IMG/VR virus record: IMGVR_UViG_3300021962_000031
Length of the DNA stretch: 64,000 bases
Strand: one strand, 5' to 3'
Origin: a virus
The position numbers and the translations under genes were made by a program. Shown here in pieces: positions 38,801 to 64,000 of the stretch. The notes under the pieces were generated by a model. That model was given only the letters and a program-made list of their open reading frames with translations, had not been told where the DNA came from and did no database searches. Position 1 is the stretch's first letter. Each line of letters begins with the position of its first letter.

Positions 38801-41800
38801 CTTACAACGGGCAAGACAAGAAAGACTGACTGGTTTTGGCGGCCCAGGCTCTGGAAACCCTCAATTTATAGCCAGCGCAATGGGTGGTGTTTTTGATGAC
38901 ATTCGTCGAACAGAAGAGCGAATTTCTCAAGCAACCAAAGGCGGAAATATCGCTGAACAGAATGCGGCTGCTATCCAATTGTCTTCTCTTAAAACCAAAG
39001 CGGCAGAACTCGGTCAAGCCTTGAAAAATCTTACGGATGTTTCCGAAAGAACATCACAGGCTCAAGAAAAGCTTTCAAAAATACAATCTGACCGAGAAGG
39101 CAGGCAAGCTCTTGGTCTTCGTTACGCTACAGCAAACACAGAGGGCCGAGCGGAAATAGCTTCTTCTTTTAGGTTGTTATCTGCTGCGGCTCAAATGGGT
39201 ACTGCGGCTACTTTTTCAACCAAGCAACAAAATCAAATCTTCAGTCTACTTTCTTCGTTGTCGCCCCAAATGAAATTGCCTGGTTTGGGTGGTATCAATG
39301 TAAAAGATTTGACTTCTCAATTAATGAAAACTACTTTTGGCGGAGCATTTGATCTTGACCCACAAACGGCTGCTCTTGAGCGGGCTTTAGATAATTTCGT
39401 TCAATCAAATTATGATGTCGCAGTCGAGGCATCTCGTCTACAGGTAGAGATGCAACAGAAGCTGCAAGCTGATTTCTTTTCTAGGCTTCAAAACGGACAA
39501 CAAACCTTCATAAATGAACTTTCTAGAGTTATGATGGAAAATCAAAAACTCATGCGAGAAAGTCTTCAAATGCAGGCGCAAAGTCGCCTTGAAGGTTTGG
39601 AAAAACAAGTTGGTCAATCTTCAATGCTTGGAAAAATCGGAGTTTCGACTGACGATCAATTCAAGGCTTTGAGAGATACATTGAATGATCCAAAAAATAA
39701 AAGTATTGATACTATTTTTGAGTCGGCAAAAAACCAAAGAATTGTGCAAGGCAAAACAGAAAAAGCATTAGATAACACAAAAAGTTTTGTGGATGATATA
39801 ATTGCTTTAGCTGGAAATGACTATGCTAGAGGGACAGCAAAAAGCGATGTTTCTGGAATTTTGATGAACAAATTTGGCGATATGGGATTTACTTCTCCTA
39901 TCGATCAAAAAAAATTGATGTCTTTGTTTTCCGAAAATTTAGACGAAAAAGCTGGCTATTTGTCAACCATTGGTGGAAACAAAGAGAACATCGCTGAAGC
40001 ATTTCGTTATGCAATTACCACATTTCAAAGAGAATCTAATGATCGAAACAACACCGACATATTGCAAGCCGGAAAAGATTTGCGTAACCAAGGCACTATT
40101 GATAACAAGATAATAGACAACATTATTCGGACAGCAAAAGAAAACGCAGATAATATTACTGTCAAAACATTGCGTGAATCTGTTTCTGCCGTAGGTAGCA
40201 CGAATAAGAAGTTTTCAGAGTTAAATGGCGCTCTTGACCAGGCTCGTCAACAAGTTCAGGGATTTGCTGAAGTCTTAGCTGTTAGGCCTGAAGGAAGAGC
40301 CAACGGCGGTATGATTCGTTATTTTAATAAAGGTGGTTGGGGTTCTGGCGGTAGTCTCAGCCCTCACTCTTCTGACACCGTAAACGCCAGAATTAATCCT
40401 AATGAATTTGTTGTTTCGGCAGGGCCTGCTCAAAGAAACAAAAAACTTTTGGAGCAGATAAACGCCGGTTATGCAAATGGTGGAGCAATTGAAGAAGCCA
40501 AACAAAATATTGGAAACGCTCAAAAAAATATTGGCGCAAGTACTGAAGATATTATAAATCCCGTTAAAACTATGGAGGCCGCCGAGCAAGCTCGCAAAGT
40601 AGCTCGCGCAAATTCACAAATTCTTTTCCTTCTTCAAATTAAAAACATGAACCCTGATGAGCGGTTCAAATTTGTCAACAAACAAAAAGATTGGATCAAA
40701 TCAATTTCTGGGAAAGAGACAGGCGATCAACTTGGTATCAAAGATGCTCTTGCTCAATTAATGTCAATCGAAGATCAAAAAAATAAATCTTTGAACTTTC
40801 GTGATCTTGAAAATTATCATGTTGGCAAAAGAAAAATGGGAATTGCAAAAGCAATAAAAACTTTTCCGACTAAAATTGCAGTTGATATTCCAGAAATATA
40901 TCAAGCATTAAAAAAGTTTATGGAAGCAGGAAAAGAAGCTGAAATATTTACAAATAATGTCAACGATAAATTCCGAATCGGAATTGGTTCTAGTTTGAGC
41001 GAAGTAATTCAATCAGAACCAGATTTGAAAAGACATTTATTCCTTAATAATGTTGATCGCATGGCGAATACTCTAAACGAAGATGGCACATTAAAACTTT
41101 TGGGTGACATTGATCCTCTTCGCAGAGAATATGAATCTCTTTGGACTGATACAAAAATATATGCTAAAACGGCAAAAGATTGGACATCAAGTGTCATTTT
41201 TGCAAATGACTATAATGAAATTGGAAACTTGCCTACAATTGGCGATTTGCAAGAAAAAGAAAAACGAAACATTGACAAAAAGATTCTTCAAAAGCATTAT
41301 CCTCCTGGAATTTTTGGCAAAATTTATGGCGATGCCCTTCAACGCTTAGCAATTACTGCTCCGAATGAATTTTCTGGAGACATGGATACATGGGCAAAAA
41401 AAACAGAAAAAACCAAAAAACTTGGTCTAGATTTTGATTTTGAAAAGACGATTTCGGCTCTTATTGATAAGGCTCAAAATGATTTAGTAAATCAAAAAGC
41501 AGAAGTTCAAAAGCTTGCTAAAGCTAATGACTTGGTAAAAATAATTCAGCAAGGACGAATTGGTTCATTGCAGACTCCAGAACAAGGCATCGCCAAGATT
41601 TTTGAAGAGCGCAACAATGCTCAGTTTGGCCCCAAACAAGATATGGAGTTGATGAAGCTCCAGCTTATGGCCATGGAAGCAGACGCTTTCAATAAATTAA
41701 ACCCTGGCGTTCAAACAAAACTTTTGGAGATGAAAAGGCGTCGCATCCTTGAAAACAAATTGAGTCCTGCCGAGCAAGCCCAAATGGCTGCTATGGGTCT

Positions 41801-44432
41801 GGATAAACTTATTAATTCCACCGAAGATGTGACTGGAGATGAAATTCGCGAATACGCTGCCAACCGCAACAAAATGACCTTAATACAAAGAGCAGCCCTA
41901 GATGTTTTAATGGGCAAAATTGCCGCTCAATCTCAAGGCAAATTTAACGAAGACCCAGACAGCTTGAGCGCAGTCGAAAAGGCAGCTTATCTCATTTCTG
42001 TAGATGCTGAGGGTAGATCGGCTGCTCTTGATGAATTTAACAGTCGAAAAAATGCGATGACCTTAAATCGAATCGGGATGTGGATAACTTCCAATCCTGG
42101 CGCAATAAACAATATGTTAAAAAAATCTGAAGAGAAGGGTCCTTTTGGTTATGCTAAAGATTCAGCTCTTCTTGAAATTTTGGCAAGTGCTTATGGCGCT
42201 CCGACAACTTTACCAAAAGCTTCTGATGTGTTTAAGGATAGAAGCCTAAAAAACAAACAGCAACTTGACGAAGCAGAAAAAATTAAAAACGAATTTTTGG
42301 GTCAAAAAGAAAATGCTATTGCTATTGCTCAAGCGGCTTTGGGTTCTGGTGTCACAAACGGACTTATTGAAGCCTTTAAATCTGGAAAAGGTCTTCTTGG
42401 ATTTGCTTCTGGTGGTCTAGTTCCTGGGGTTGGCAATACCGATTCTGTTCGCGCTAATTTGCCAGTTGGTAGTTATGTTGTTCGCAAGTCTTCTGTTCAA
42501 AAGCTAGGCGCAGATACTTTAGCTGCCCTTCCCCACATGGCTAGGGGCGGAGTTGTGCCAGCCATGGTTATGCCTGGTGAACATATTTTTACTCCCAGCG
42601 AAGCTTCAAAGATTGGGAAAAACAATCTTGATCATATTAACTCAACGGGGAAATTACCTGGATACGCAGATGGTGGTGATGTTGTCATCAACGGAATCAA
42701 ATACAATTTGGTTCCATCTGGTGCGGCAAAATGGGGTGGAAACCGAAATGCTCAAATGGGATTCCAACCGCAGACCGCCAAAGGAACAACTAATCCTTTA
42801 GCAAACAATAATAATAATGGCAATCTAAATGAACAACAGTTCCTCGCTATGGAAGCGATGAACCAAATGATTGGCGGTAATGGTGGAATCACCGGGGCCA
42901 AAGCTAAATTTTTCTCTCTTCGTGACGAACTAAAAAATCCAAGAAACAGAACCAAAGAAAAAATTGCTGAATTTCGACAGTTGTATGCGACTTTGACCAA
43001 TCCATTGGTTGCACAAATGGATGCGCAGCGTCAAATGCTTGGCGCTCAAGACGCATTCGCTTCTTTCCAGCAAGACCCAAAAGCCTTTATTGCTCGGTCG
43101 AAAGAGCTTCGAGCTTTGGCTATGAACACCAAAGCCTCAATGGAAGAACGCGTAGCAGCCAAAGAACAACTCAATCAAATGAACTATGCTGCTAGGTTCA
43201 TTGATCCTCGGGCACTTAGAGGCGCGGCAGCAGCAAATCAAAAAGATCAACAGATCAGACAGCAACAGCAATTTATTGCTGCCGGAAACGATCCATTGCA
43301 GGGTGGCCTGCTGCGTCTCAATCCCGCTCTCGCCAACAAAAATATGGCGCCTGCGGCAAATCCAGTAGAAGTACACAACGCAAGAGTTAGAGCTAACGAA
43401 CAAAATCAAGCCGAACCAAATCGTAAAGCAGCAGAAGTTAACCATCTCAAAAAGATGCTGGATATAGCTCAAGAAAACTACCTAAAAACTGGCGATCCGC
43501 GGTTTCTTCAAGAGATTAACAAACTCAAGAACCCAGAAAAAGTAAAAGCAGAAGAAGAAGCCGAAGCCAAACGCAAAATGGATGACTATCGCGCCAAAAA
43601 ACAAAGTGAAGAACATGGAAATGAAATTGGTCGTTGGCATGTGCGAGAAGGCATTGAAGACATCAAAGATCCAAATGGCATTAAGCGTGGAGAAGAAAAA
43701 CTAAGAAAGTTTTACGCAGAGAAAGACAAGAAAAGACAAGAGTTTGAGAGTCGGGTTTTTGCCCACGCCCCGACTTACGAAGAAAATATGCCAAAAATGC
43801 AGAAGGAATGGGACGAAAAGAACAAGGGATTTGTTGAAAACCGATTGAAAGAACTTGAAAAAGAAAGCAACGAGCGTTTCAATCGCAATCCAATGCATGC
43901 TGCGATGTATGCTCGACTGGCAGATTCTCCTTATCTTGACAAAAAAGACATTGTCAAAAAAGCGACAGGCGGCATAGTCCCTGGCGTTGGTTCTGGGGAT
44001 ACTGTTCCCGCCCTGCTTGAGCCTGGCGAACTCGTAGTACCGAAGAAGCAGGTTCAAAAGTTTGCCAACGGCGGTGTGGTGGGCGGTCTCCAAGGATTCG
44101 CCAACGGAGGAATGGCGCAAGGCGGTCCTGAGCTTCTGGACGTCGCCGCCAAGTTCAACCAAGCCGCCACCCAGATCAGCCAGGGACTATCGGGCTTCTC
44201 CACCTCGGTTAGTACCTTCAACGGGGCCGTGGCCAACTTCGGCACCTTTGTGGACAAGTTCGACGAGGCGGTGGGCAAGATTCCCGGCCAGATTGAACTG
44301 TCTGGGGCGAACGACATCTCGGTCAACCTGATGGGCCAGGACTCCATCGTCAAGGCGGTCACCGAAGCCATCGGGCCTATGATCGCCCAGGCGATTCGGG
44401 ACAACCAGCCGGTTGAGCAAAGGGCACAGTAA
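32826..44432 (+). CDS. Giant tape measure protein (3868 aa) with an internal zincin-like domain
   Basis: N-terminal TP901-type TMP core (AIEFDREM.., TRESAESIATGLRTIF.R); position after tube and chaperone genes; four GG..PG.G..D.V..GE.V modules; HEMAH at 34860-34874. Confidence 0.9.
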   Translation: MSFDITGQLNLRLASGAIRNIANEINTGLRGTTRGVSVPVRADMNNIRAVKEAISGAGTALDKFAQQSGLAFKRFAAFSSAAVPFIAVASGIRNAVTQAIEFDREMVRLRQVSVESASEVAQVGQEVTRLATAYGVSSKELIKMAVTLKQADFNIYETRDALEALAKSALAPNFDSMAQTGEGAIAVMKQFQIQAADLDKAIGSMNAVAGAFAVEAGDLIEAVRRTGGAFKATGGDLNQLLALFTSVRQTTRESAESIATGLRTIFTRIQRNDTVNALKEFGVNLRFTRQEAERAGDLGLTNQFVGAYEAIRRLSSALTQLPEADPRYSAIVEDLGGYRQISKVIPLIQQWSTTERALMVAEAGRVSLTVNASQATESYANRLTKLQESYLSLGRSLMDSNSFKVAFSGFESLAKGMLMVLEAAKPLLPMLTAMASAKLIQSIAPVAARFYQGVTYSDKGSLLARNQGGPVGFASGGLVPGVGDKDTVPSSIPSGSFVVRKSAVQKFGSENLARLGSKANVMLTPGEYVFTPDQAKKIGAPSLNQINRNGKLPGYALGGLFDYVKSYFGSPSLPDANQTAARPTVRLIDQILKQGKDPNKEAKFQQYASRLQKEAFKSGNFADLAKVIPSLADTKVEYGVSSKPLSKAYGFVDANEQKNKVYITSNLKNAPNPLSTVVHEMAHVADLAAGRKIAGKKTGRNFLSNQEGTETNTIIKKLAPLFEKGLMGMEPDEFKNTGKNKQDYIKYRLQPHEILAKSVQAMSLENPLDAFKDMQGVTKKEQAQLLALVKEVDQTFRKEVVEKMGATQPKADSGPTKKVEEARKKVASVGKQIKDAAKKVKTPDSEPVPVAVAEPAVQPMSREERLEYLKRRKAEMDAKAEADAKRDVRQAMRDEGIAPARGKRKKKEGLPAKPEVIVKEPIREILSNEKTPGGTFPENSQGYLAAHAITERMNQGRAERHKAVLPTGVAASELATVSISKATDKITGTRVAPPGLTREDRKRYEAYSSKVYAELKEARYWGFNSVKEYREFNDYFGRLDGSGPPGKGSIPTGGGGGGGGGGGEPPSPTTPSDVSPGSPPPPPKKRRGYAAFKSEMKYRELIESAMKTGNQIGAYSTEMPQFSGDQSIKFLGELRKMGGYRPQMLQESIEQNLRTNNPGMNEKGIQKVAAMQTTRIMKAAEQVSRAQERLGQVSNIREQANSRAGDIDQYFQLSRSINRLQKRADFDPEAVAEAKRLTATRQEVAKRIADNEGIDFSELGKVSKSGRVSATKSARDLLKGYRSGYESDARGATVEEARQRAILEKNQEKLQGVGISTSMDASGQVKINFRGTDSAYGAGTIPPRANINKNNLGKILNDEVQKIYNAIDPAGRGKNISDIQKKDISENAKNNVMKNYVDNVSLQIQQQYKIKDAESARLIATQKFEHALRSGAEIVVKNNQIFDADALKQGYKGGLRQKFANVFSSTQGALGNAFSSQSGFLGGQVIASYVSNALSNLAGSADNAAANDRGGSYKAARVLSGGLSGLVTGAQIGSAFGPLGAGIGAATGGLFGLVNSFKEAAQEISDAKIGLALKKTTDALSNFAKGTYALTPQNAKTIDTNFNTIDREIAAKSGRNTSYLFGLVSGSQENFQTELTKNMRESMAGQATSMMDALTKLIQDQAVRNVGNADIQDMASIRKDFDLALAQNGGIGSRLFSRVATATEQDPEMFRKTLLDMFQRSKESEVLKRRQQTSETEINRSTATFGGLSSAVEVATQRLTRMTTSLKNVSDFMDGSITPFSGSGLTEALQRPLGSDREDFMGAVRSITKTAGVAGGDVEKTADAVTVAGRLLPSIINAVRSQPVANLATGADISVQIGENLRKGLAARGIDNTSAAMVTNMVSSQLGSEDFSKMLRETGQDMGKLIQKLLGPMAEPLKQSFTEIAKNLDERGRMFAEGLSELANRTRAVGELMDKANMAEIASVRNRIQFGVRRRLISEDAADAGLFNASQNLQRARQERLTGFGGPGSGNPQFIASAMGGVFDDIRRTEERISQATKGGNIAEQNAAAIQLSSLKTKAAELGQALKNLTDVSERTSQAQEKLSKIQSDREGRQALGLRYATANTEGRAEIASSFRLLSAAAQMGTAATFSTKQQNQIFSLLSSLSPQMKLPGLGGINVKDLTSQLMKTTFGGAFDLDPQTAALERALDNFVQSNYDVAVEASRLQVEMQQKLQADFFSRLQNGQQTFINELSRVMMENQKLMRESLQMQAQSRLEGLEKQVGQSSMLGKIGVSTDDQFKALRDTLNDPKNKSIDTIFESAKNQRIVQGKTEKALDNTKSFVDDIIALAGNDYARGTAKSDVSGILMNKFGDMGFTSPIDQKKLMSLFSENLDEKAGYLSTIGGNKENIAEAFRYAITTFQRESNDRNNTDILQAGKDLRNQGTIDNKIIDNIIRTAKENADNITVKTLRESVSAVGSTNKKFSELNGALDQARQQVQGFAEVLAVRPEGRANGGMIRYFNKGGWGSGGSLSPHSSDTVNARINPNEFVVSAGPAQRNKKLLEQINAGYANGGAIEEAKQNIGNAQKNIGASTEDIINPVKTMEAAEQARKVARANSQILFLLQIKNMNPDERFKFVNKQKDWIKSISGKETGDQLGIKDALAQLMSIEDQKNKSLNFRDLENYHVGKRKMGIAKAIKTFPTKIAVDIPEIYQALKKFMEAGKEAEIFTNNVNDKFRIGIGSSLSEVIQSEPDLKRHLFLNNVDRMANTLNEDGTLKLLGDIDPLRREYESLWTDTKIYAKTAKDWTSSVIFANDYNEIGNLPTIGDLQEKEKRNIDKKILQKHYPPGIFGKIYGDALQRLAITAPNEFSGDMDTWAKKTEKTKKLGLDFDFEKTISALIDKAQNDLVNQKAEVQKLAKANDLVKIIQQGRIGSLQTPEQGIAKIFEERNNAQFGPKQDMELMKLQLMAMEADAFNKLNPGVQTKLLEMKRRRILENKLSPAEQAQMAAMGLDKLINSTEDVTGDEIREYAANRNKMTLIQRAALDVLMGKIAAQSQGKFNEDPDSLSAVEKAAYLISVDAEGRSAALDEFNSRKNAMTLNRIGMWITSNPGAINNMLKKSEEKGPFGYAKDSALLEILASAYGAPTTLPKASDVFKDRSLKNKQQLDEAEKIKNEFLGQKENAIAIAQAALGSGVTNGLIEAFKSGKGLLGFASGGLVPGVGNTDSVRANLPVGSYVVRKSSVQKLGADTLAALPHMARGGVVPAMVMPGEHIFTPSEASKIGKNNLDHINSTGKLPGYADGGDVVINGIKYNLVPSGAAKWGGNRNAQMGFQPQTAKGTTNPLANNNNNGNLNEQQFLAMEAMNQMIGGNGGITGAKAKFFSLRDELKNPRNRTKEKIAEFRQLYATLTNPLVAQMDAQRQMLGAQDAFASFQQDPKAFIARSKELRALAMNTKASMEERVAAKEQLNQMNYAARFIDPRALRGAAAANQKDQQIRQQQQFIAAGNDPLQGGLLRLNPALANKNMAPAANPVEVHNARVRANEQNQAEPNRKAAEVNHLKKMLDIAQENYLKTGDPRFLQEINKLKNPEKVKAEEEAEAKRKMDDYRAKKQSEEHGNEIGRWHVREGIEDIKDPNGIKRGEEKLRKFYAEKDKKRQEFESRVFAHAPTYEENMPKMQKEWDEKNKGFVENRLKELEKESNERFNRNPMHAAMYARLADSPYLDKKDIVKKATGGIVPGVGSGDTVPALLEPGELVVPKKQVQKFANGGVVGGLQGFANGGMAQGGPELLDVAAKFNQAATQISQGLSGFSTSVSTFNGAVANFGTFVDKFDEAVGKIPGQIELSGANDISVNLMGQDSIVKAVTEAIGPMIAQAIRDNQPVEQRAQ
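35982..36014 (+). repeat. Perfect (GGT)11 microsatellite encoding Gly11
   Basis: Read directly from the sequence. Confidence 0.95.
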
Positions 44433-53872: not shown

Positions 53873-53956
53873 TTCGTTCTCCTTCTTTTGATAATAACCG
53901 CCACCACCCCCAGCACGCATAGAACCATATGACACGGGATTGTGCTGGAGGACAGT

Positions 53957-54994
53957 ATGCCTACGCCCTTGCTTACTATCGGAATGGCGACCTTTGACGA
54001 CTTCGACGGCGTCTACTTCACCCTCCAATCTCTTAAGGCTTACCACGACCTGACCGATGTTGAGCTATTGGTCGTTGACAACAAACCCGAAGGCTGCACT
54101 CACACCAAGACTATCTGCGAGTGGACGAAGACACGCTACCTGCACAGGGGCCACGCTACCGGCACCTCCCTCCCCCGCCAACTTGTCTTTGAAGAAGCAC
54201 AAGGGGAATGGGTCATGTGCATGGACAGCCATGTCTTGCTCACGCAAGGGGTTGTGTCCAAGGTTAAGGAGTTCATTCGTTCTGGCAAAGCCGAACGCAA
54301 GAACCTTTACCAGGGACCGCTTCTTTACGATGACCATATCAACATGGCGACGCACTTCGACCCAGTCTGGCGCGACTCCATGTATGGCACCTGGGCGACT
54401 GATGAGCGAGTCAAGCTTGGGGAACCGTTCGACATCCCCATGCAAGGCCTCGGCCAATTCATGATGTGTAAGGAAGAATGGCCAGGCTTCAATACCCTGT
54501 TCAGAGGCTTCGGTGGTGAAGAGGGGTATATTCACTCTAAGGTGCGCAAATTCGGTGGCAGGGCGATGTGTGTCCCTTGGATGACCTGGCTGCACCGGTT
54601 CGGTCGGCCCAAGGGTGTTCCCTATCGCCTCGTTCTTGAAGATCGCGTGTTCAACTACATCCTAGGTCGCCGCGAGATCGGCCTGCCTTATCAAGATGTG
54701 ATTGAACACTTCACGGGCAGGATGCCCGAAAATAATCTCAAGGCGACAGTCGCCGAGGCCGAAGCACTAGATTTTAACGAGGGCGTTTTCCCTGAGCGTT
54801 TCCGCAGTCTGCAAAAAATCGTTCGGACTCAACCGTGCGTTTATCGCACGGAATTACCCATCGACCGGGCTGACTGCAACTGCCCCTTCAAATTCGTTTA
54901 TGGCTGCGAGAAGCACGAGAAGTGCCGACCGTTCACCGACAACGGAGACGGTGTTCGCTGCTGCCAAAAATGCGAAGACTACGAGGAGGTCTGA
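53957..54994 (+). CDS. GT-A glycosyltransferase with ppGalNAc-T-like motifs and a Cys-rich C-terminus
   Basis: LLVVDN, DSH (54224-54232), FGGEE (54509-54523), H.F...PY motifs; GGAGG RBS. Confidence 0.8.
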   Translation: MPTPLLTIGMATFDDFDGVYFTLQSLKAYHDLTDVELLVVDNKPEGCTHTKTICEWTKTRYLHRGHATGTSLPRQLVFEEAQGEWVMCMDSHVLLTQGVVSKVKEFIRSGKAERKNLYQGPLLYDDHINMATHFDPVWRDSMYGTWATDERVKLGEPFDIPMQGLGQFMMCKEEWPGFNTLFRGFGGEEGYIHSKVRKFGGRAMCVPWMTWLHRFGRPKGVPYRLVLEDRVFNYILGRREIGLPYQDVIEHFTGRMPENNLKATVAEAEALDFNEGVFPERFRSLQKIVRTQPCVYRTELPIDRADCNCPFKFVYGCEKHEKCRPFTDNGDGVRCCQKCEDYEEV

Positions 54995-55992: not shown

Positions 55993-56850
55993 TTACTCCG
56001 TGGACTTGTTAGTGTTCTTCTTCCAGTCAGGATCGTACCCTTTGAACTTGGGATCGATCTTGCTCCTATCCCTCTGAAGCTCGTTCAGATGCGCGATGAT
56101 GAGCGTTGCGCTCTTGTGGGGGATGTTCTCCAGCTTGCCGTCCCAACGGAAGCTTCGTGACGATGACAGATAGGCATCGATATTGATGTCGTTGCGCTGG
56201 CAAAGCGTCTGAATGAAGCTGTGCTGCATTTCGGTTGACTTGCCGTTGTTGGACAAATCATGATCCTGGAACAGGTTGGATGGCTCCTCAGCCGTGATCA
56301 CCCTGCGCAGGCGCAGAGCCTTGCGGAGTGCCCGTCCTTCGGCCCTAGTCTCAGCCATTGCTGTCGCAAAAATAGAAAACTTGCCGTCCGTGTTGCCTGA
56401 ATTGCAATCCGCAGCAGCCGTAAAGGTGACCTCCCTATCGGTGTGGATTGACTCGTAAGTGTACGAAAATTCAGCCACCGCCGTCATGGCGTTTTCCGGA
56501 CTGGGCGCTTGGACAATGCGGACGCTGGAGCTGACCGTCGGTCCAAGAACCAGTTCGGCCACTCGGCGCAGGCCATCGCAAGTCGGGCGCCCTTCGGGCG
56601 ACAGCTCCTCTGGCGACAACTTCGACAAGACATACTCAGTCCAGTCGGGGTCGGTCGGGCAATGCTCCTTGTAAGATTCTGGTTCAAAAGGAGGAATTTC
56701 AGGACTAGGAGTAGCAACATTCACCACGACATCGACTGGGGTAGCTGGGATTTCGTCAACGCTAACCGCCGCATCCAACGATACGGTATCCAGAACACTT
56801 TCCCCATCGAGATCATCAACGGAAACAACAGCCCCACGCTTCTTAGCCAT
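55993..56850 (-). CDS. Rad52/Sak-like single-strand annealing protein
   Basis: DGLRR..., A.A......TF...AD and AMAETRAEGRALRKAL motifs; small C-terminal helical domain; start MAKKR with GAGG RBS. Confidence 0.65.
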   Translation of the reverse strand: MAKKRGAVVSVDDLDGESVLDTVSLDAAVSVDEIPATPVDVVVNVATPSPEIPPFEPESYKEHCPTDPDWTEYVLSKLSPEELSPEGRPTCDGLRRVAELVLGPTVSSSVRIVQAPSPENAMTAVAEFSYTYESIHTDREVTFTAAADCNSGNTDGKFSIFATAMAETRAEGRALRKALRLRRVITAEEPSNLFQDHDLSNNGKSTEMQHSFIQTLCQRNDINIDAYLSSSRSFRWDGKLENIPHKSATLIIAHLNELQRDRSKIDPKFKGYDPDWKKNTNKSTE

Positions 56851-57631
56851 CGGTCGCCACCTCAATTTCGTAATACGATCCCACCCCGGGATCATTGTCC
56901 TTCGCCAATTGTATGATGTTCAACAGCTTCTGTAAAGTATTTTTCATCCGAATTTCGGACGGACTTCCTTTAGTATCTTTGATAATAATCACTAGCAGAT
57001 TACATCCGGTCAAAAGACCGGTCTTTTTGGCGTCTGCCGCAGCCCGTTTCGCATAATAGTCATCCCCCCAGATGGGCCGATAATGGCTGGGGCCGTTAAC
57101 TTCAATCGCAACCCCCTTAAACTTTCCAACCTTACGATTAATTAATATATCGATGTGCTGCCGTTCCAGCTGAACATGAAAGTCTACGGGATAACGAGCT
57201 TGCGTCAGTCCGCGAATCAAATATTTTTCTAGTCTGCTTCCGGTATCGGCGGCTTCCCGAACGGCATCCAAAGCCTTTTTCTGCAAAGATTCTCGCCGAT
57301 CTTCCCCCATTGTTTCCCATTGCTTCTTGGAAATTTCCGAACGGCGTTTGCGTTCCTCCTCGGACATGGTTTCCCATTTCTCTGCCATTCGTTCGCCGAT
57401 TTGGGCCTTGCGCTCCGCAGAAAGCTTCTTGCCCTTGGTGGGGTGTTCCTGACGGCCAGTTTCCAAGGCGAGGACCTGAGCCTCCGACCGACTACGGACA
57501 GGGATACCAAACTTGTTCAAGGCGCGACGCACCCGGTTGGGGTAGGTGCCTAGTTCAGCGGCAATGTCGTGGGTCGAGCGTCCCTTGTTGGCGTACTCTT
57601 CAACGAGATATTCATAGGTCAAACTTGACAT
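56843..57631 (-). CDS. HTH + NUMOD3-like + Vsr/DUF559-type endonuclease (homing-endonuclease-like)
   Basis: S..DIA.ELG...VRR.L..GI; KGKKLS.E.K..I; S.LE..., HID, AIEVNG.SH and D..K motifs. Confidence 0.7.
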   Translation of the reverse strand: MSSLTYEYLVEEYANKGRSTHDIAAELGTYPNRVRRALNKFGIPVRSRSEAQVLALETGRQEHPTKGKKLSAERKAQIGERMAEKWETMSEEERKRRSEISKKQWETMGEDRRESLQKKALDAVREAADTGSRLEKYLIRGLTQARYPVDFHVQLERQHIDILINRKVGKFKGVAIEVNGPSHYRPIWGDDYYAKRAAADAKKTGLLTGCNLLVIIIKDTKGSPSEIRMKNTLQKLLNIIQLAKDNDPGVGSYYEIEVATDG

Positions 57632-58080
57632 AACAACCTCTCAATCTGATCGGGATCAAAATCTTTGATGACTCTTTCGGTGTCAATCGGTCGCCCCCAG
57701 GTGTTTTCCAGAATGCGACGATGATGAAGAGATCGCGCCAACAGGGGGAAAGTCACATAGAACGGTTGCAAATCACGCCAGGCAAACCCCTCATTGCCCA
57801 ACCATTCCAAGTCCCAACAGTAAAACCAAACTTTTCGCCCAGCCGGCGAGTTGCTTACCTTGGCCAAGCTTGACAGACTGGTAACGATGACAGGCGTGTT
57901 CTGCGCATAAGCGTAGGCCGCATCAAATATTGGAAAGTGAGGTTGGGCTGGCGATGCCCCTTTGTCTTCAACAAAAACCGTTATCTCGTGGCCTCGTTTC
58001 GTAAGCTCGTTGCCACAATGAACTATGGCAAGGGAAAGGTGAGATGAAGCCAGGGTCGGGGTCAGAAAGTGGATTTTCAT
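57619..58080 (-). CDS. Glycosyltransferase N-terminal-like small protein
   Basis: MKIHFL.P.L...NEL..RGHEITVF is a GT-B N-terminal pattern; only 153 aa. Confidence 0.45.
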   Translation of the reverse strand: MKIHFLTPTLASSHLSLAIVHCGNELTKRGHEITVFVEDKGASPAQPHFPIFDAAYAYAQNTPVIVTSLSSLAKVSNSPAGRKVWFYCWDLEWLGNEGFAWRDLQPFYVTFPLLARSLHHRRILENTWGRPIDTERVIKDFDPDQIERLLCQV

Positions 58081-58817
58081 GGCCTCAGCACGGCACGGAT
58101 GCCCGCTCCCTGTTGACTGATTTTAAACGGCAGACGCTCAACCCCAGTAATGTTCGCAATAGCATCGTGCCATTCAGACGGAGCCAGGCAAAACAAGGTA
58201 TTTTCGCCACACCAAACACAGCCCCACGCCCCCTGCATCCTGGCGTCGGCGTAAATGCGGATAACTTCGTCTGGTGCTTGGTCGCGATAAAGCTTCCAGG
58301 CCTGTTCAAGAACATCGCCTGATTTTTCCCAATCGCCAGCAGCCATGGTTTTCACCAACATCCCAGCCATAATTGTGTAGCTGGTGGCGTGGCCAGAGTT
58401 CGGGGTTCTAACCCAGTTATTGGAGTTGCCTTCAACGCGCAGAAGAATCCCGTGTTTTTCAAGACCTTCAGCACACGGCAGCGCAAACGGACCATTGATT
58501 CCAATGCTGTCTCGTGCCACAGAAACCAGACCACCTACTCGTGAGCAAATTTCTGTCAAAGATTCCCCTTCCAGCTTGCCCGGATACCATTGCTCGTCTC
58601 TCAAGATTTTGCTTGCCAATTCGCACGCTTCTATCTGGCTCAAATGAGCGTCCGGGAAATCCTGGTAGCACTCGACTCTTTCCTTGTGGCGAACCGCCCA
58701 TACACCAGCCTTAAGATGGACGCGGATAGTATGAATTTCTCCCTCTGAAGAGCCAGATAAATCGGTGCCAACCAGAGTAAAACTATATGGGGCAAACGAC
58801 ACTTTCATTTCTGCCAT
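58077..58817 (-). CDS. GHMP (HddA-like) sugar kinase homologue, degenerate
   Basis: AP....GTDL, GD....G..L...W, Y..A...GA.G and PF.....G motifs; ATP-binding and Gly-rich loops are missing. Confidence 0.55.
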   Translation of the reverse strand: MAEMKVSFAPYSFTLVGTDLSGSSEGEIHTIRVHLKAGVWAVRHKERVECYQDFPDAHLSQIEACELASKILRDEQWYPGKLEGESLTEICSRVGGLVSVARDSIGINGPFALPCAEGLEKHGILLRVEGNSNNWVRTPNSGHATSYTIMAGMLVKTMAAGDWEKSGDVLEQAWKLYRDQAPDEVIRIYADARMQGAWGCVWCGENTLFCLAPSEWHDAIANITGVERLPFKISQQGAGIRAVLRP

Positions 58818-59011
58818 GCTCCGCGACCCATGGTAAAATTCTTCGTGGCCTTTATGTCTTTGTTGCTGAACTCCCAGATTTCGCCGGTCTCGTAAAGAAT
58901 GACGGCGAAGAGTTTTTCGGTCTCGACACCATAGTCGGTGACGAGCCACACCCTCCCACGGCCCTTGGGCGTGTCCACTTCTAGCGATTGCTTGGGTTCA
59001 AGAATAAACAT
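58805..59011 (-). CDS. Small beta-rich phage hypothetical protein (68 aa)
   Basis: V.TPKG.G....DYG.E....GE.W...N......N.TMGR; overlaps both neighbours by a few codons. Confidence 0.6.
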   Translation of the reverse strand: MFILEPKQSLEVDTPKGRGRVWLVTDYGVETEKLFAVILYETGEIWEFSNKDIKATKNFTMGRGAWQK

Positions 59012-59687
59012 CTTCGTAGACGATCCTCGAGTCTCGTTCGCAAAGTCTGGCATAGAGGTCCTTGTCTTCGGACCAACTTTCGCCCGTCCAGAATTGGAAA
59101 CCTTCATGGCGTGCTTTGTAGGTGCTGGCATTCTCATAACCTCCCATGACGTAGTACCAGCGGCAGCCGTTTGACCGGGCAAGCGTGGCCTCGACATATG
59201 TACTAACCGAGCCGAGGGAGAGCTTGGGGTCGGCATAGTCCCAGGCGAACTGAACGCCAACGAAGGAGCGCGGATAGCTAAGGTAGGCAACGAAGGCGAC
59301 CGCCTTGCCATCCACCTTGTAGGTGAGCCAGGAAAACTCTCGGTTGGCCGCCAGTTCCTCAAAAACATGCCCGCTTGCGAACTCGTGGCGAACAAGATAA
59401 CCAGCTACGATCCGCTCGTAAGCATCCTTGTCAGGCTTTTCCGCATGCCAACTGGCGCATTTTAAAGCCCGACGAAAGTTTTTCTCGGCCGTGCGCCCGA
59501 AGCTCATGCGCTCCAGATCGTAACGGACGGAACGAGCAGGGAACCATTTGCCAGCCCACGGCAGAAATCCCATCTCTAGCATCTGATCGTGGGATTCACC
59601 CTCCTGGATGACCCAGCAGGGGGCGTGAATCAGATCGTGCTGGGTGATCTTGCCCCAGCCCTCAATATGATCAAACTCGATCTTCAT
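58998..59687 (-). CDS. ATE1/Bpt-like aminoacyl-tRNA-protein transferase (GNAT fold)
   Basis: L..GF, RSVR.DL, Y..DGK.VA and WDY.DPKLSLG..S...E...AR..G....Y..GY.....YK match the ATE_C signature. Confidence 0.7.
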   Translation of the reverse strand: MKIEFDHIEGWGKITQHDLIHAPCWVIQEGESHDQMLEMGFLPWAGKWFPARSVRYDLERMSFGRTAEKNFRRALKCASWHAEKPDKDAYERIVAGYLVRHEFASGHVFEELAANREFSWLTYKVDGKAVAFVAYLSYPRSFVGVQFAWDYADPKLSLGSVSTYVEATLARSNGCRWYYVMGGYENASTYKARHEGFQFWTGESWSEDKDLYARLCERDSRIVYEDVYS

Positions 59688-60297
59688 CGGGCGGAAAACA
59701 TGGTGCGTCAGTACTACTCAAAACCTCCAAATCGGCATCGACAGCTTTGCCAAGGGCAGGTCGGGCACCATCTAGAACGAACACAGCGGCGTCCACCCAA
59801 GGCCAGTGACGAATATCATCAGGCGCATATTCGCCAGTAATCACGCAAAATGGTTCTTGATCGACTTGGATTTCTGGCGTCTGATGGCGCAACTTCAAGC
59901 AGGCTTGCTTGTAGTCTTCCGGTAGCCAGTAGCTGTAGGGGTCATAATCCAAGATAATTCTTTCTGTCTTGTAAATCTTGGCTTTGCCGAACTCGGCTTT
60001 CTCCAATTCTGCCAAGGCTTCTGCTGTCAACAGGGCGCGATGACTGAGCAGAACCGGGTGTTGCGATTTGGCCAAATGGCACACGGCCAAATAACCAGCT
60101 GTACCTGCGGGACAAATCGCCAGCTTCCAGAAAAACCGGGAACTAAAAGCCTTCAAGATTGGCAGAATTTCTCTTGGCTTGCCTTCCCAAGGCACAATGA
60201 CTTCAGTTTCAGGTGATGGACGATAAGCAGCAATCATGGATAGACACCGGGTCAGAGTGTCGAGATTTTCCGGCTTGTCCAAAACAATGCTCAGCAT
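59671..60297 (-). CDS. GT2-like protein, degenerate
   Basis: LSIV......L.RCL.......EVIV N-terminus; no DxD. Confidence 0.4.
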   Translation of the reverse strand: MLSIVLDKPENLDTLTRCLSMIAAYRPSPETEVIVPWEGKPREILPILKAFSSRFFWKLAICPAGTAGYLAVCHLAKSQHPVLLSHRALLTAEALAELEKAEFGKAKIYKTERIILDYDPYSYWLPEDYKQACLKLRHQTPEIQVDQEPFCVITGEYAPDDIRHWPWVDAAVFVLDGARPALGKAVDADLEVLSSTDAPCFPPDEDRV

Positions 60298-61091
60298 GTC
60301 AGCATGGCCCTCATGAACGCCTGGGCAGAATCGACCGGCGTGTACTGAATAAACAAATCAACCAACTCACCAAAGACTTCTTGTCGTTCAAATTCGCTGC
60401 TAAGAACGAGGTCTTCGACAAGCTTTATGTAAGTTTCAGGAAGGTTGCGAGAAGTCGGAAGGGAATTGTCTCCGGCAACTACAGGGATAGTCCCCACTCG
60501 CAATGTCTCGTAAATTTTACGAACATCACTCGCCTCATCGGCAGACATGGCATGTACATAGGTCGAGGCCAAGGCACGCGCTCTTTCCTCGGTTGTCAGA
60601 GAGCCAGCGTAGTATGGAACAGGCCACGGCTTGTCGGCGTAGATACGGGCCACAAAACTCTCATTCTCAAACAGAGGGATAAAAAAAGCATCGTAGCCCG
60701 GACGGTATTGATCCAGAAAAATCACATCGGTCGCCAAATCGTTGCAATAAAGCGACTTGCCATCCAAACACATGAAAGGCCAACGGATGACAGGCAGCCC
60801 CTGCTCGTTGTCGTCGGTGGTGAACAGAAATGCCCCTGGCGGCAGCTTGTCCAAGAAAGTGAAACTATCCTGCCACAAGGCCAGTCGGCACTTGCCCTGA
60901 TTGCGAAGCAGGGCGGGTGTGATGGCGGATGTCGGGCCGATAAAAAGGTCGGGTTTCTGTCTGGCAAAGGCCTCGTGGGTGGGCATCTTTGACGGAACCC
61001 ACAGGGCCGCATCATGTCCAAGCTGAACAAAACCGCGTGCCAAGGCGCCTGTCCCCACACCATTGTCATCATTCTCAATGAGAATATTCAT
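60291..61091 (-). CDS. GT-B (CgeB-like) glycosyltransferase homologue
   Basis: L.RGF..LGH, KPDLFI, D..F, KIYE.L..G and C-terminal T......F motifs. Confidence 0.5.
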   Translation of the reverse strand: MNILIENDDNGVGTGALARGFVQLGHDAALWVPSKMPTHEAFARQKPDLFIGPTSAITPALLRNQGKCRLALWQDSFTFLDKLPPGAFLFTTDDNEQGLPVIRWPFMCLDGKSLYCNDLATDVIFLDQYRPGYDAFFIPLFENESFVARIYADKPWPVPYYAGSLTTEERARALASTYVHAMSADEASDVRKIYETLRVGTIPVVAGDNSLPTSRNLPETYIKLVEDLVLSSEFERQEVFGELVDLFIQYTPVDSAQAFMRAMLTC

Positions 61092-61861
61092 GCTGTCACG
61101 CCCTTGCGCCTTAGCTTGGTAACCAAACTTTTAGCTCGTTCAATATCCTGAGTGCTGTCAATTTCTACGAGATTGGTCTTGTCTGGGTAAGCCGGCACAA
61201 TGATGCCATGCGCGTCAATAATTCCGTTAAGAACCTCATAGGCAAACCAACGGGCACTCTGATTGCGCGAAGCAACTCGCCGATACAAGTCAAGTTCCTT
61301 GTCTGCCAGTTGCACGGCCTGACCCCATTTGGGCCAGACCCCATAGCTGAAATGGCAGACTCGTTCTTGGTCGATGTTGCATCCGACTTCGCCAGAACGA
61401 TGATTCTGATTCTCGTCAATAATTGCGGCAGAACCTTCTTCTGGTAGGCATTCAAGAAAATCGGGTCCAAAAACCAAATCTCCACACATCAAAATCACCT
61501 TCTTGGCGTTTGCGTGATTTACGCCAACAAGGAGAGAGCGGGCCACATTGGTATCTTCGTGGGATGAGTTTTCTACCCAGCCAACATCCTTTGGCAAAAC
61601 CTTTATCACCCGATCCTTCTGGTAGCCAACAACCACGATGATTTCAGCTTTTGGCAATGCCTTGCGGGCGAACACAATCTGGCGACTGAGAACGGTCTCG
61701 CCGCCGCCGATTTCGATAAGGGCTTTTGGGCCTCGGGCCTTCATGCGGCGCCCAGCCCCAGCCGCGCTAATTACGACAGCAAGGTCTGGCAATGGCGATC
61801 CCTCATGATTTTTACCTGTTTGGCCATGAACTCGGATGGTGTGCGCCTGCTGAGCTGCCAT
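61088..61861 (-). CDS. Sugar/choline-phosphate nucleotidyltransferase (LicC/MobA-like)
   Basis: AAG.G.RM...PK.L, VVGY, GD.VF and EID...D motifs all intact. Confidence 0.85.
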   Translation of the reverse strand: MAAQQAHTIRVHGQTGKNHEGSPLPDLAVVISAAGAGRRMKARGPKALIEIGGGETVLSRQIVFARKALPKAEIIVVVGYQKDRVIKVLPKDVGWVENSSHEDTNVARSLLVGVNHANAKKVILMCGDLVFGPDFLECLPEEGSAAIIDENQNHRSGEVGCNIDQERVCHFSYGVWPKWGQAVQLADKELDLYRRVASRNQSARWFAYEVLNGIIDAHGIIVPAYPDKTNLVEIDSTQDIERAKSLVTKLRRKGVTA

Positions 61862-62520
61862 GTTCCTTCGTTGACGCTCATCATTGGATCGGGCAGATGT
61901 AGGATGACCCGGTCAGCAGCGATTCGCATCCACAATTCATAATCTTCGGCGGGAGGCAGGGCTTCATCGTACAAGCCGACATTTTCCAGAGCAGATTTGC
62001 GAATCACGCAAGCGGAATGAACCATGTTGTCAAAAAAGAGTTCTCGTTTTACGAACGCCTTTTTGCAATGGCGGAACGAGACGCCATCACGCACCTGGAA
62101 GTAATCGGTATAAACCGCACCGGCCATCTCTCCATACTTTTCCAGTAGGTCTACGCAGGCTTTCAGTCTGCCTGGAAGGAAACGGTCGTCCGCATCCAAA
62201 ATGGCAAAATATTTTGTCTTATCCCAACTGACTTTGATGGCCACATTTCGTGCAGCCGCTGGCCCTTGGGATTGGTGGGCAGAGAAAAGATTAACTTGGA
62301 CATCCTTGATCGTGCCGCGGACAAAAGGTATTTGCAAAATTTCATCGTGGGCGGCGTTTTCCATTGATCCCAAAAGAGTGCGCACGGAGTCATCGGTTGA
62401 GCCATCATCAACAACAACGACCAGTCCTGGCTTTTCTGCTGCGGCTGATTCAACCGCGCCCACCAGAAAATGGCCGTAGTTGTGATTAGCAATCACAACC
62501 GCAACATCCTCAAGCGACAT
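61771..62520 (-). CDS. Family 2 glycosyltransferase
   Basis: VVDDGSTD, G.AAARN, LDADD and EDYELW.R motifs intact. Confidence 0.9.
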   Translation of the reverse strand: MSLEDVAVVIANHNYGHFLVGAVESAAAEKPGLVVVVDDGSTDDSVRTLLGSMENAAHDEILQIPFVRGTIKDVQVNLFSAHQSQGPAAARNVAIKVSWDKTKYFAILDADDRFLPGRLKACVDLLEKYGEMAGAVYTDYFQVRDGVSFRHCKKAFVKRELFFDNMVHSACVIRKSALENVGLYDEALPPAEDYELWMRIAADRVILHLPDPMMSVNEGTWQLSRRTPSEFMAKQVKIMRDRHCQTLLS

Positions 62521-63307: not shown

Positions 63308-63756
63308 TGACGGATGGCCTCCACATAGCTGGTGAAATCGCTGACATAGGAACGGACGGGGGTCATGCCCAGGCTACTGAGCATGGTGCGAAGCTGGGGC
63401 AGAGTTCCTGCGCTGGTGCGCCTTTGTCCGCCGCCACCGCCGTAAATGAGTTGTATAAAATCAGAAATGTCGCCCAGAGTGACTTTCCGACAAACCTCAA
63501 CAATCTCGCGAGTGCCGACAACCATCACGCCGCCTCTCGCTAGTCTGGAGACCCAGTGGGTCAACAGCTTGGTGCGGAACTCAAAAGGGTAATAATCCAA
63601 GACATCGGTCGCTTGGATTTCCAGGGCCTCGCCCTCTTCGGCAAGCTGACTAAGATCGGCAGGATTGCCGGGTGATTCTTGACTGGCTGGATCGACCTCG
63701 ATAAAGCCGGGTAGGCCGAGCTTTTGGCCTCCCACAGTCATGCGGATTTTGACCAT
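63304..63756 (-). CDS. Class I methyltransferase-like protein
   Basis: GF..VD, EI.A.DVLDY and W...L..GG motifs; start MVKIR with GGAGG. Confidence 0.55.
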   Translation of the reverse strand: MVKIRMTVGGQKLGLPGFIEVDPASQESPGNPADLSQLAEEGEALEIQATDVLDYYPFEFRTKLLTHWVSRLARGGVMVVGTREIVEVCRKVTLGDISDFIQLIYGGGGGQRRTSAGTLPQLRTMLSSLGMTPVRSYVSDFTSYVEAIRQ

Positions 63757-63998
63757 TGCTTCCTCCACCACGGTGCGCGGGCGGCAACTTGCAATGCCTG
63801 TCCCCACTCCCGAACAAAACGCTCCAAACCAAACCGCTGACGGGCCTTTTCCGCAGCAGCTCTACCGATTACCTCGCAGTAGGCGGGATTGCCCAAAAGC
63901 CTTTTGACAATAGCGTTCATTTCCTCGGGAGTGTCCACAAGGAAACCGGTCACGCCATGTTCAATGGCTTCGGTCACCGCCCCAGCCCGGTAGGAAAC
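63738..63998 (-). CDS. GT4 glycosyltransferase, C-terminal part (truncated by window edge)
   Basis: VS...GAV.E.I.HG.TGFLV...L........G.AA......RF...RF...W; the frame is open to the window edge. Confidence 0.8.
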   Translation of the reverse strand, partial: VSYRAGAVTEAIEHGVTGFLVDTPEEMNAIVKRLLGNPAYCEVIGRAAAEKARQRFGLERFVREWGQALQVAARAPWWRKQWSKSA

Positions 63999-64000
63999 AA

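Follow-up and report, generated by a model that had tools for sequence, protein, structure and literature searches.

Why would a phage carry a protein that resembles the aminoacyl-tRNA transferases ATE1 and Bpt, and on what would such a protein act? The question is raised by an open reading frame (ORF) at positions 58998-59687, on the minus strand, of a 64,000-nucleotide (nt) stretch of the IMG/VR virus record IMGVR_UViG_3300021962_000031, here called the window. The ORF starts with ATG and encodes 229 amino acids (aa). As its N-terminus, MKIEFDH, is also the beginning of 20 homologues, the position of the start codon can be considered fixed. The source genome measures 149,106 bp with 127-bp terminal repeats and looks like that of a complete phage, having plus-strand genes with portal, head-decoration, fibre and depolymerase-like matches. 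A first, sequence-only reading of the window had recognised the ATE_C-like signature WDYADPKLSLGSVSTYVEATLARSNGCRWYYVMGGYENASTYK, which is indeed found within the translation, and had called the gene ATE1/Bpt-like. This identity stands: the protein is a full-length homologue of Bpt and ATE1. Its function is read more tentatively, at slightly less than even confidence, as the tRNA-dependent transfer of a basic amino acid to a peptidoglycan-precursor-like or glycan-linked amine by a compact and metal-free enzyme of the ATE1/Bpt branch.

Relationship to Bpt and ATE1

The best single Pfam match of the 229-aa protein is Acetyltransf_6 (E 7.5e-6; 26.6 bits, cut-off 22). The sequence-only reading had proposed a search with the ATE_N/ATE_C domain pair, of which Pfam recovers the second part and not the first. 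ATE_C is matched by 20 of 21 family members, with a best E-value of 2.2e-8 and several members above the cut-off, and ATE_N (PF04376) has no Pfam match in any of the 31 family members scanned. The metagenomic homologues of the protein (n = 21) are 33-83% identical to it. NCBIfam returned weak arginyltransferase matches (E 2e-3, far below the cut-offs). Neither the protein nor its four neighbours match any entry in PHROGs, the protein has no Pfam match to FemAB, and tblastn against 50,697 GenBank phage records gave no match.

Deeper alignments were required for the first half of the protein. A shallow hhalign comparison of 21 phage rows with four Bpt sequences covered the C-terminal half only, at a probability of 39%. 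With 98 relatives on one side and 24 Bpt sequences gathered from proteobacterial genomes on the other, the probability rises to 99% (E 4.8e-18) over 215 columns. Since these columns span both halves, the first half can be regarded as a degenerate ATE_N and not as an unrelated domain. When the family profile was run against the PDB, the K. lactis and yeast ATE1 proteins were matched at E 2e-6 with 21 rows and at 1e-8 with 98 rows (best 1.1e-8).

Bpt, the Leu-tRNA-protein transferase of bacteria, consists of ATE_N plus ATE_C in about 240 aa, and the phage protein has this size, this two-half architecture and an end-to-end alignment in common with it. Also shared are the glycine of GFRRSG, the arginine of the 'VRI' motif (R55), the YxxG.Y core, the catalytic lysine of YK and a C-terminal tryptophan. 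At its C-terminus, however, the phage protein has gained a GFxWWTGxxWSxD...LCxRDS tail that sets it apart from Bpt.

Predicted fold

An AlphaFold2 model of the 229-aa protein (predicted local distance difference test, pLDDT, 81; predicted template modelling score, pTM, 0.80) was compared with known structures. Foldseek places ATE1 structures alone at the top (E 1.6e-9); behind them come MprF, FemX and Sba18, a streptothricin enzyme, and all three depend on aminoacyl-tRNA. Using VIA-align, human ATE1 is found with a Z-score of 16.2 over 215 of the 229 residues, spanning residues 1-221, followed by K. lactis ATE1 (klAte1) at 14.0, MprF at 13.7 and FemX at 12.8. Across the structures of the eukaryotic arginyltransferase ATE1 (PDB 8tzv, 7wg1, 7tif and 8e3s), which are the best structural matches, 214-215 residues are aligned. 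The best acetyl-CoA GNAT reaches a Z-score of 11.2, with about 140-150 residues aligned. In the model, the fold is nearest to ATE1 and then to the tRNA-dependent MprF, FemX and Sba18, ahead of the acetyl-CoA GNATs against which the sequence-only reading had set its assignment.

Similarity in fold goes together with clear differences. Compared to eukaryotic ATE1, the phage protein has less than half the length, shows 14-17% identity and lacks the variable domain, the Zn/Fe-S finger and the residues R80 and Y25. With FemX, MurM and FemABX proteins it has the superfamily and the lysine-based mechanism in common, as well as fold matches at Z 11.4-12.8. Fem enzymes, however, are about 330-400 aa long and have two GNAT lobes, in many cases together with a coiled coil, whereas the phage protein has an ATE_N-type first half; only about 150-176 residues are aligned, with a score below that of the ATE1 match.

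Catalytic lysine and donor pocket

Numbering according to klAte1 was anchored by a HMMER alignment to 7wg1 together with the Bpt/ATE1 profile alignments, and the roles of klAte1 residues were taken from PMC9351520. K191 (codon 59115-59117, minus strand) corresponds to the catalytic lysine of klAte1 (K304) and of FemX (K305), and the position is occupied by Lys in 97 of the 98 relatives. Replacing it in klAte1 (K304A) leaves the enzyme inactive (PMC9351520). Judging from the sequence, tRNA dependence of the phage protein is very probable.

The arginine pocket of klAte1, formed by S255, S273, E277 and Y289, aligns with G144, S162, E166 and Y178 of the phage protein, as opposed to A/A/Q/L at the same four positions in Bpt. 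E166 (codon 59190-59192, minus strand) is the counterpart of klAte1 E277 and human E387. Glu is present here in 78/98 relatives, including all sampled phage-type rows, and the position is variable in a cellular clade linked to Mur ligases that is described below. From this ATE1-like pocket (G/S-S-E-Y) a basic donor amino acid, most simply Arg, is predicted, and the chances that this prediction is right seem about even. The donor tRNA would probably be one of the host. A tRNA-Met (CAT) is the sole tRNA detected in the phage genome (G000:C1:113258-113329, minus strand; L130:759-830), and an Rfam scan of C1 112500-117500 gave no tRNA-like RNA besides it; with this one tRNA only, there is no sign of a dedicated donor tRNA.

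The acceptor-side half

Residues 1-60 (59508-59687, minus strand) make up the degenerate ATE_N-like acceptor-side region, as delimited by the hhalign columns. H7 is retained. Where Bpt and ATE1 have GFRRSG, the phage protein has GFLPW (residues 40-44), followed by W48-F49 and then by R52 and R55, which form an RSxR motif. Leu-Pro thus stands in place of Arg-Arg: klAte1 R80, the first Arg of GFRRSG, becomes L42 and R81 becomes P43, with Y87 replaced by W48. G40, R52 and R55 are invariant across the 98 relatives. R55 matches the conserved 'VRI/TIR' arginine, and R52 is a new invariant arginine that is gained relative to Bpt. At position 42 the residue is Leu, Ile, Ala or one like them; none of the 98 rows has Arg or Lys there.

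The four metal-binding cysteines are lost as well: one falls into a gap, and two coincide with a deletion of 7 residues at the CxxCxxC of Bpt. That the cysteine cluster typical of ATE1 and Bpt is not evident had already been noted from the single sequence, and it proves true for the family as a whole. At most one Cys is present in the first 60 residues of 81/98 relatives, and CxxC occurs in one only, whereas all 24 Bpt sequences have at least four. Because the cysteine cluster and the GFRRSG arginine, two features that define ATE1 and Bpt, were both tested for and are both missing, the protein ought not to be listed as an orthologue of either. The description that fits best is that of a separate clade within a known kind, and the family is most simply read as an offshoot of the ATE/Bpt scaffold that has no metal.

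What the loss of the GFRRSG arginine means is less straightforward. R80 of klAte1 is essential for activity on N-terminal Asp and Glu (PMC9351520), whereas in a ternary model of the human enzyme the GWRRSG arginines are placed more than 10 Å from the substrate's N-terminal end (PMC11283454). The loss shows that the N-terminal half is remodelled and does not prove a new acceptor.

Next to this region, residues 59-82 (59442-59513, minus strand) align to the basic helix of Bpt and ATE1 that binds the tRNA acceptor stem, more precisely to 'RSQRR..' of Bpt and 'SKSHKKVLKK' of human ATE1. The model has a helix at residues 65-77, RTAEKNFRRALKC, and the segment is basic in the window protein (RTAEKNFRRALK). 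Human ATE1 needs K88 and K92 of its tRNA-binding helix (PMC11283454, PMC10115844).

Cellular relatives next to Mur ligases

Cellular-looking contigs are the source of the weakest rows in the 98-row alignment (P0145-P0167). When the tree is rooted on Bpt, these rows, the phage rows and a member on a Bacteroidota chromosome (G242) form one clade, with a support of 97 in the Shimodaira-Hasegawa-like approximate likelihood-ratio test (SH-aLRT). The clade lies outside that of Bpt (support 99) and also excludes a Cys-less Bacteroidota type with the motif 'GWRHFG'.

The gene order around P0166 is MraZ - RsmH - x - PBP - MurA - MurE - x - MurE paralogue - [ATE-like] - MurC/Mpl-like ligase, where stops overlap with starts; P0166 was seen in 35 blocks of the collection. 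A Mur ligase gene lies directly upstream of P0145 and P0160 as well, again overlapping. Taken together, this arrangement is found in three of six informative cellular contexts, one of them inside a dcw cluster; two others contain no Mur ligase, and two further contexts were too short to judge. The sister clade of the phage proteins sits here in a FemX-like niche between Mur ligases in a dcw cluster. Phage and Mur-linked rows have G-[FW]-L-P, [WYF][YF], RSxR, Y179, Y184, K191, G202 and W205 in common. The donor pocket differs, being (G/S)-S-E-(Y/L) in the phage rows and Y-M-variable-hydrophobic in the Mur-linked ones.

Several observations on these cellular genes can be added. A module of a MurE paralogue, a Cys-less ATE-like gene and a MurC/Mpl-like gene, in or next to the dcw cluster, is present on a metagenome contig (L149:6739-10113) and also in L150 and L147. 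Going by this three-gene module, those bacteria, probably uncultivated ones, are predicted to make their peptidoglycan precursors with a tRNA-dependent step that has not been described. On the Bacteroidota chromosome G242 (L148:9619-11199), the family member lies 39 nt downstream of a gene for a TMEM164-family membrane protein, with Amidase_3 and an ABC-F ATPase nearby; the TMEM164-family protein and the ATE-like protein could be a pair for lipid or envelope aminoacylation. Other Bacteroidota chromosomes (L136, L139, L141, L142 and L144) carry the second Cys-less Bpt-like type, of about 220 aa, with 'GGWRHFG ... PLRI'. This type retains the arginine of the GFRRSG kind, and its members group in a clade of their own that is placed between Bpt and the phage family.

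Proposed function and alternatives

According to the reading preferred here, the GNAT half would bind the acceptor end of a host aminoacyl-tRNA, and K191, in the same role as K304 of ATE1 and K305 of FemX, would stabilise the tetrahedral intermediate. The remodelled N-terminal half would hold a free amine, to which the aminoacyl group would pass, so that a task like that of FemX or MurM would be performed on an ATE1-like scaffold. The cellular members may act as FemX or MurM do on peptidoglycan precursors, with a small or hydrophobic donor, and the phage members, with their ATE1-like pocket, may use a basic donor on a related class of acceptor. For the phage studied here the acceptor could be a host wall precursor or, equally, a product of the adjacent glycosyltransferases. 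A wall- or glycan-type amine is suggested because the acceptor-side motifs are shared with the Mur-linked sister clade and because the gene lies in a run of glycosyltransferase genes. That the acceptor is a non-protein one of this type is nevertheless put forward with some reserve, at a little under an even chance; that it is not N-terminal Asp or Glu is probable. The sequence-only reading had left two options side by side, the redirection of N-degron proteolysis and the aminoacylation of a glycan or virion protein. The first loses ground, since the protein has neither the GFRRSG arginine nor the metal finger and its closest cellular clade is Mur-linked, and a non-protein acceptor of the glycan type gains, both options being hypothetical. 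A more specific version, in which a widespread phage enzyme arginylates a wall precursor or, in this lineage, the glycan that the adjacent glycosyltransferases would make for a Thr-rich virion fibre, with host tRNA as the source, and in which bacteria with the gene in their dcw cluster would have a FemX-analogous ATE/Bpt branch not recognised before, is considered rather doubtful.

Several points weigh against the preferred reading. For the window protein itself, ATE_C (PF04377) gives 23.6 bits (E 8.3e-5), slightly short of the cut-off of 25. Across the family, the part that aligns to the tRNA-binding helix is only moderately basic, with a median net charge of +2.5, and Glu166 could act in catalysis instead of in donor choice. 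What the GFRRSG arginines contribute to recognising the acceptor is a matter of dispute, and given their distance from the substrate in the human model (PMC11283454) their loss need not mean a new acceptor. A Mur ligase accompanies the cellular genes in only half of the informative contexts, and with an identity of only 17-20% the transfer of function between phage and Mur-linked proteins is risky. Moreover, most phage lineages have neither glycosyltransferase nor cell-wall neighbours.

As ATE1 and Bpt, both characterised members of the branch, act on protein N-termini (PMC9351520) and the homology to Bpt is full-length, the phage protein might be an N-terminal aminoacyl transferase of new specificity that puts Arg or another residue from tRNA on host or phage proteins, by which N-degrons are made or masked (ClpS/ClpAP, possibly via Aat) or a virion protein is tuned. 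The gene is mostly a stand-alone accessory in early or replication regions, without a pathway partner, which fits substrates already present in the cell, and in the alignment Y97 takes the place of human ATE1 Y298, which lies close to the substrate (PMC11283454). However, two elements that border the peptide groove in human ATE1, its metal finger and the Y21-Y25 stretch, are deleted, the equivalent of R80 is a Leu, and the nearest cellular clade is found among Mur ligases and not beside clpS or aat, so this explanation is judged unlikely. An enzyme that does not use tRNA at all, either an acyl-CoA GNAT such as an amino-sugar N-acyltransferase or a catalytically silent scaffold, would be in line with the best single Pfam match being to a domain named as a GNAT acetyltransferase, and glucosamine N-acetyltransferases do appear in the VIA-align fold list at Z 10.4-10.7. 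Against this, tRNA-dependent enzymes outrank the CoA enzymes in both fold searches (215 vs. about 140 residues), the lysine specific to the Fem/ATE mechanism is nearly invariant, and the protein is strongly conserved over at least 543 viral contigs; this makes a tRNA-independent role improbable.

A modification of DNA or nucleotides has to be weighed as well. Mom of phage Mu is a GNAT that moves Gly from Gly-tRNA to the N6 of adenine in double-stranded DNA (PMC13219725), and this gives tRNA-dependent chemistry a precedent in phages. Like Mom, the protein studied here is a phage-encoded GNAT that would take the amino acid of a charged tRNA for a non-ribosomal purpose, in this case possibly by aminoacylating an exocyclic or appended amine of phage DNA or of a nucleotide precursor as a protection against restriction. 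In several lineages the gene is located in the replication and nucleotide-metabolism arm, in the company of DnaE, SSB and PhoH in this phage and, for the largest class, of an exonuclease and an HU-like protein. Mom, however, belongs to another GNAT family with a helix-turn-helix (HTH)-like insertion and the essential residues R111, S124 and R151, and it acts on double-stranded DNA. No HTH-like insertion is visible in the secondary structure of the model, no Mom-like or other DNA-modifying enzyme is among the top 50 structural matches, which comprise ATE1, MprF, FemX, Sba18 and CoA GNATs, and no similarity to Mom was detected beyond the GNAT fold, although no direct comparison with Mom was made. 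The family is also acidic overall, with a median isoelectric point (pI) of 5.8, and its cellular kin are linked to cell-wall genes, so that a Mom-like role is very improbable.

Distribution and significance

Relatives of the protein are encoded on at least 543 IMG/VR contigs. In the library of 50%-identity representatives, 442 matches were found at E <1e-3 and 164 at E <1e-10. A motif-based scan of 185,579 species genomes gave seven matches, every one on contigs of metagenome-assembled genomes (MAGs), and the ESM Atlas, used as a lead only, holds chiefly viral clusters and some bacterial ones. The view that close relatives are viral only was tempered by the seven MAG contigs, the Bacteroidota chromosome G242 and the cellular clade. 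In a literature search no paper was found on phage-encoded ATE/Bpt-like enzymes or on Mur-linked ATE-like genes; the ATE-like family is a large, undescribed and mostly viral branch.

The non-ribosomal use of charged tRNA by viruses has become visible only recently, Mom having been solved in 2026. The ATE-like family is a second candidate, unrelated to Mom and far more widespread, as the contig counts and the 164 clusters at E <1e-10 indicate. If the preferred reading is true, tRNA-dependent arginylation would extend to a cell-wall or glycan substrate, and enzymes of the ATE1/Bpt type would not be limited to N-degron tagging. Phage infection and the pool of aminoacyl-tRNAs would then be tied, in a way that can be tested, to virion glycans or the cell envelope, and an unusual branch in the peptidoglycan would be expected of bacteria that have the sister gene between Mur ligases. 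Being small (229 aa) and metal-free, the protein could also serve as a minimal model of the ATE1 mechanism.

Genomic context in phages

For the survey of phage contexts, ORFs were called in 91 loci, clustered and dereplicated to 44 groups. A recognisable glycosyltransferase is present within 10 kb of the ATE-like gene in 8/44 groups, as seen with a phmmer/HMM (hidden Markov model) screen of limited sensitivity, and the link to glycosyltransferases is therefore a feature of the lineage and not of the family. The sugar-modification operon proposed by the sequence-only reading is real in this phage, while as a partner of the whole family it had to be dropped. The order family-2 glycosyltransferase (GT2), NTP_transf_3, a gene of unknown family (about 264-266 aa), a 208-aa gene and the ATE-like gene is retained in six groups, down to 54% identity; glycosyltransferases are also near the ATE-like gene in L001 and L132. 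In the largest syntenic class, made up of 13-17 groups, the gene directly upstream encodes a PD-(D/E)XK exonuclease and the one downstream is an unknown gene of 170 aa; nearby are genes for terminase, portal, PhoH, a small GNAT and an HU-like protein. More distant members are located among small accessory genes, at times near GT2, a Fic protein, methylases or lysis enzymes. Linkage to Mur or peptidoglycan-precursor genes was not seen in the phage loci.

Two apparent paralogues in a single phage (L014 and L022, on the 221-kb IMG/VR contig 3300024509_000007) were discarded, the order of neighbours being identical on both sides. The contig appears to be an assembly product in which two related genomes, each of about 110 kb, were joined, and not a phage with true paralogues.

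Neighbourhood in the window

In the phage studied here, the minus-strand run reads, from 5' to 3', DnaE, SSB, two family-1 glycosyltransferases (GT1), PhoH, another GT1, two unknowns, GT2, NTP_transf_3, two unknowns, the ATE-like gene and four more genes. The sugar genes nearby amount to two GT2, three GT1/GT4, one NTP_transf_3 and one 2-oxoglutarate (2OG) oxygenase. At the end of the window, the 3' part of a GT1/GT4 gene (63738-64000, minus strand; 343 aa, extending past the window) is followed upstream on the same strand by PhoH, two GT1, SSB and DnaE. Closer to the ATE-like gene, and all on the minus strand, are a GT2 gene (61771-62520; Pfam Glycos_transf_2, E 1.1e-14), a MobA-like nucleotidyltransferase gene (NTP_transf_3; 61088-61861; Pfam E 2.2e-14) and, within the overlapping gene run, the 266-aa gene of unknown family (60291-61091).

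The ATE-like gene had been described as overlapping its neighbours, which is correct on one side only: it overlaps the upstream 208-aa gene (59671-60297, minus strand) by 17 nt, and the downstream ORF (58077-58949) is separated from it by 48 nt. The 208-aa gene has no family match, is 48% identical in L002 and is a neighbour in 6/44 groups, all within the window's own clade. As it is absent in L001 and accompanies the ATE-like gene in these few groups only, it was rejected as an obligate partner.

Further downstream, a 262-aa ORF within the glycosyltransferase run (56843-57631, minus strand) has weak HTH and restriction-endonuclease-like matches (MTES_1575, DUF2726) and may be an insertion of the homing-endonuclease type. 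A second GT2 gene, with a Cys-rich tail (53942-54994, plus strand; Pfam E 6.4e-8), stands back to back with a gene for a 2OG-Fe(II) oxygenase of the prolyl-hydroxylase type (PF13640; 53150-53881, minus strand; Pfam E 4e-9), a pair that suggests protein hydroxylation plus glycosylation. Beyond the window, 23,969 bases past its end, a minus-strand ORF of 1345 aa (G000:C1:92973-97010; L129:1974-6011) consists of 18% threonine and has no Pfam match. It is a candidate for a fibre with heavy O-glycosylation, and the enzymes of the glycosyltransferase cluster might have it as a client.

The GC content of the window is strongly mosaic, being about 0.60 in the first 12 kb and about 0.52 elsewhere, with a low stretch of 0.38-0.47. 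Within this low stretch, in the structural arm, lies an ORF of 3868 aa (32826-44432, plus strand).

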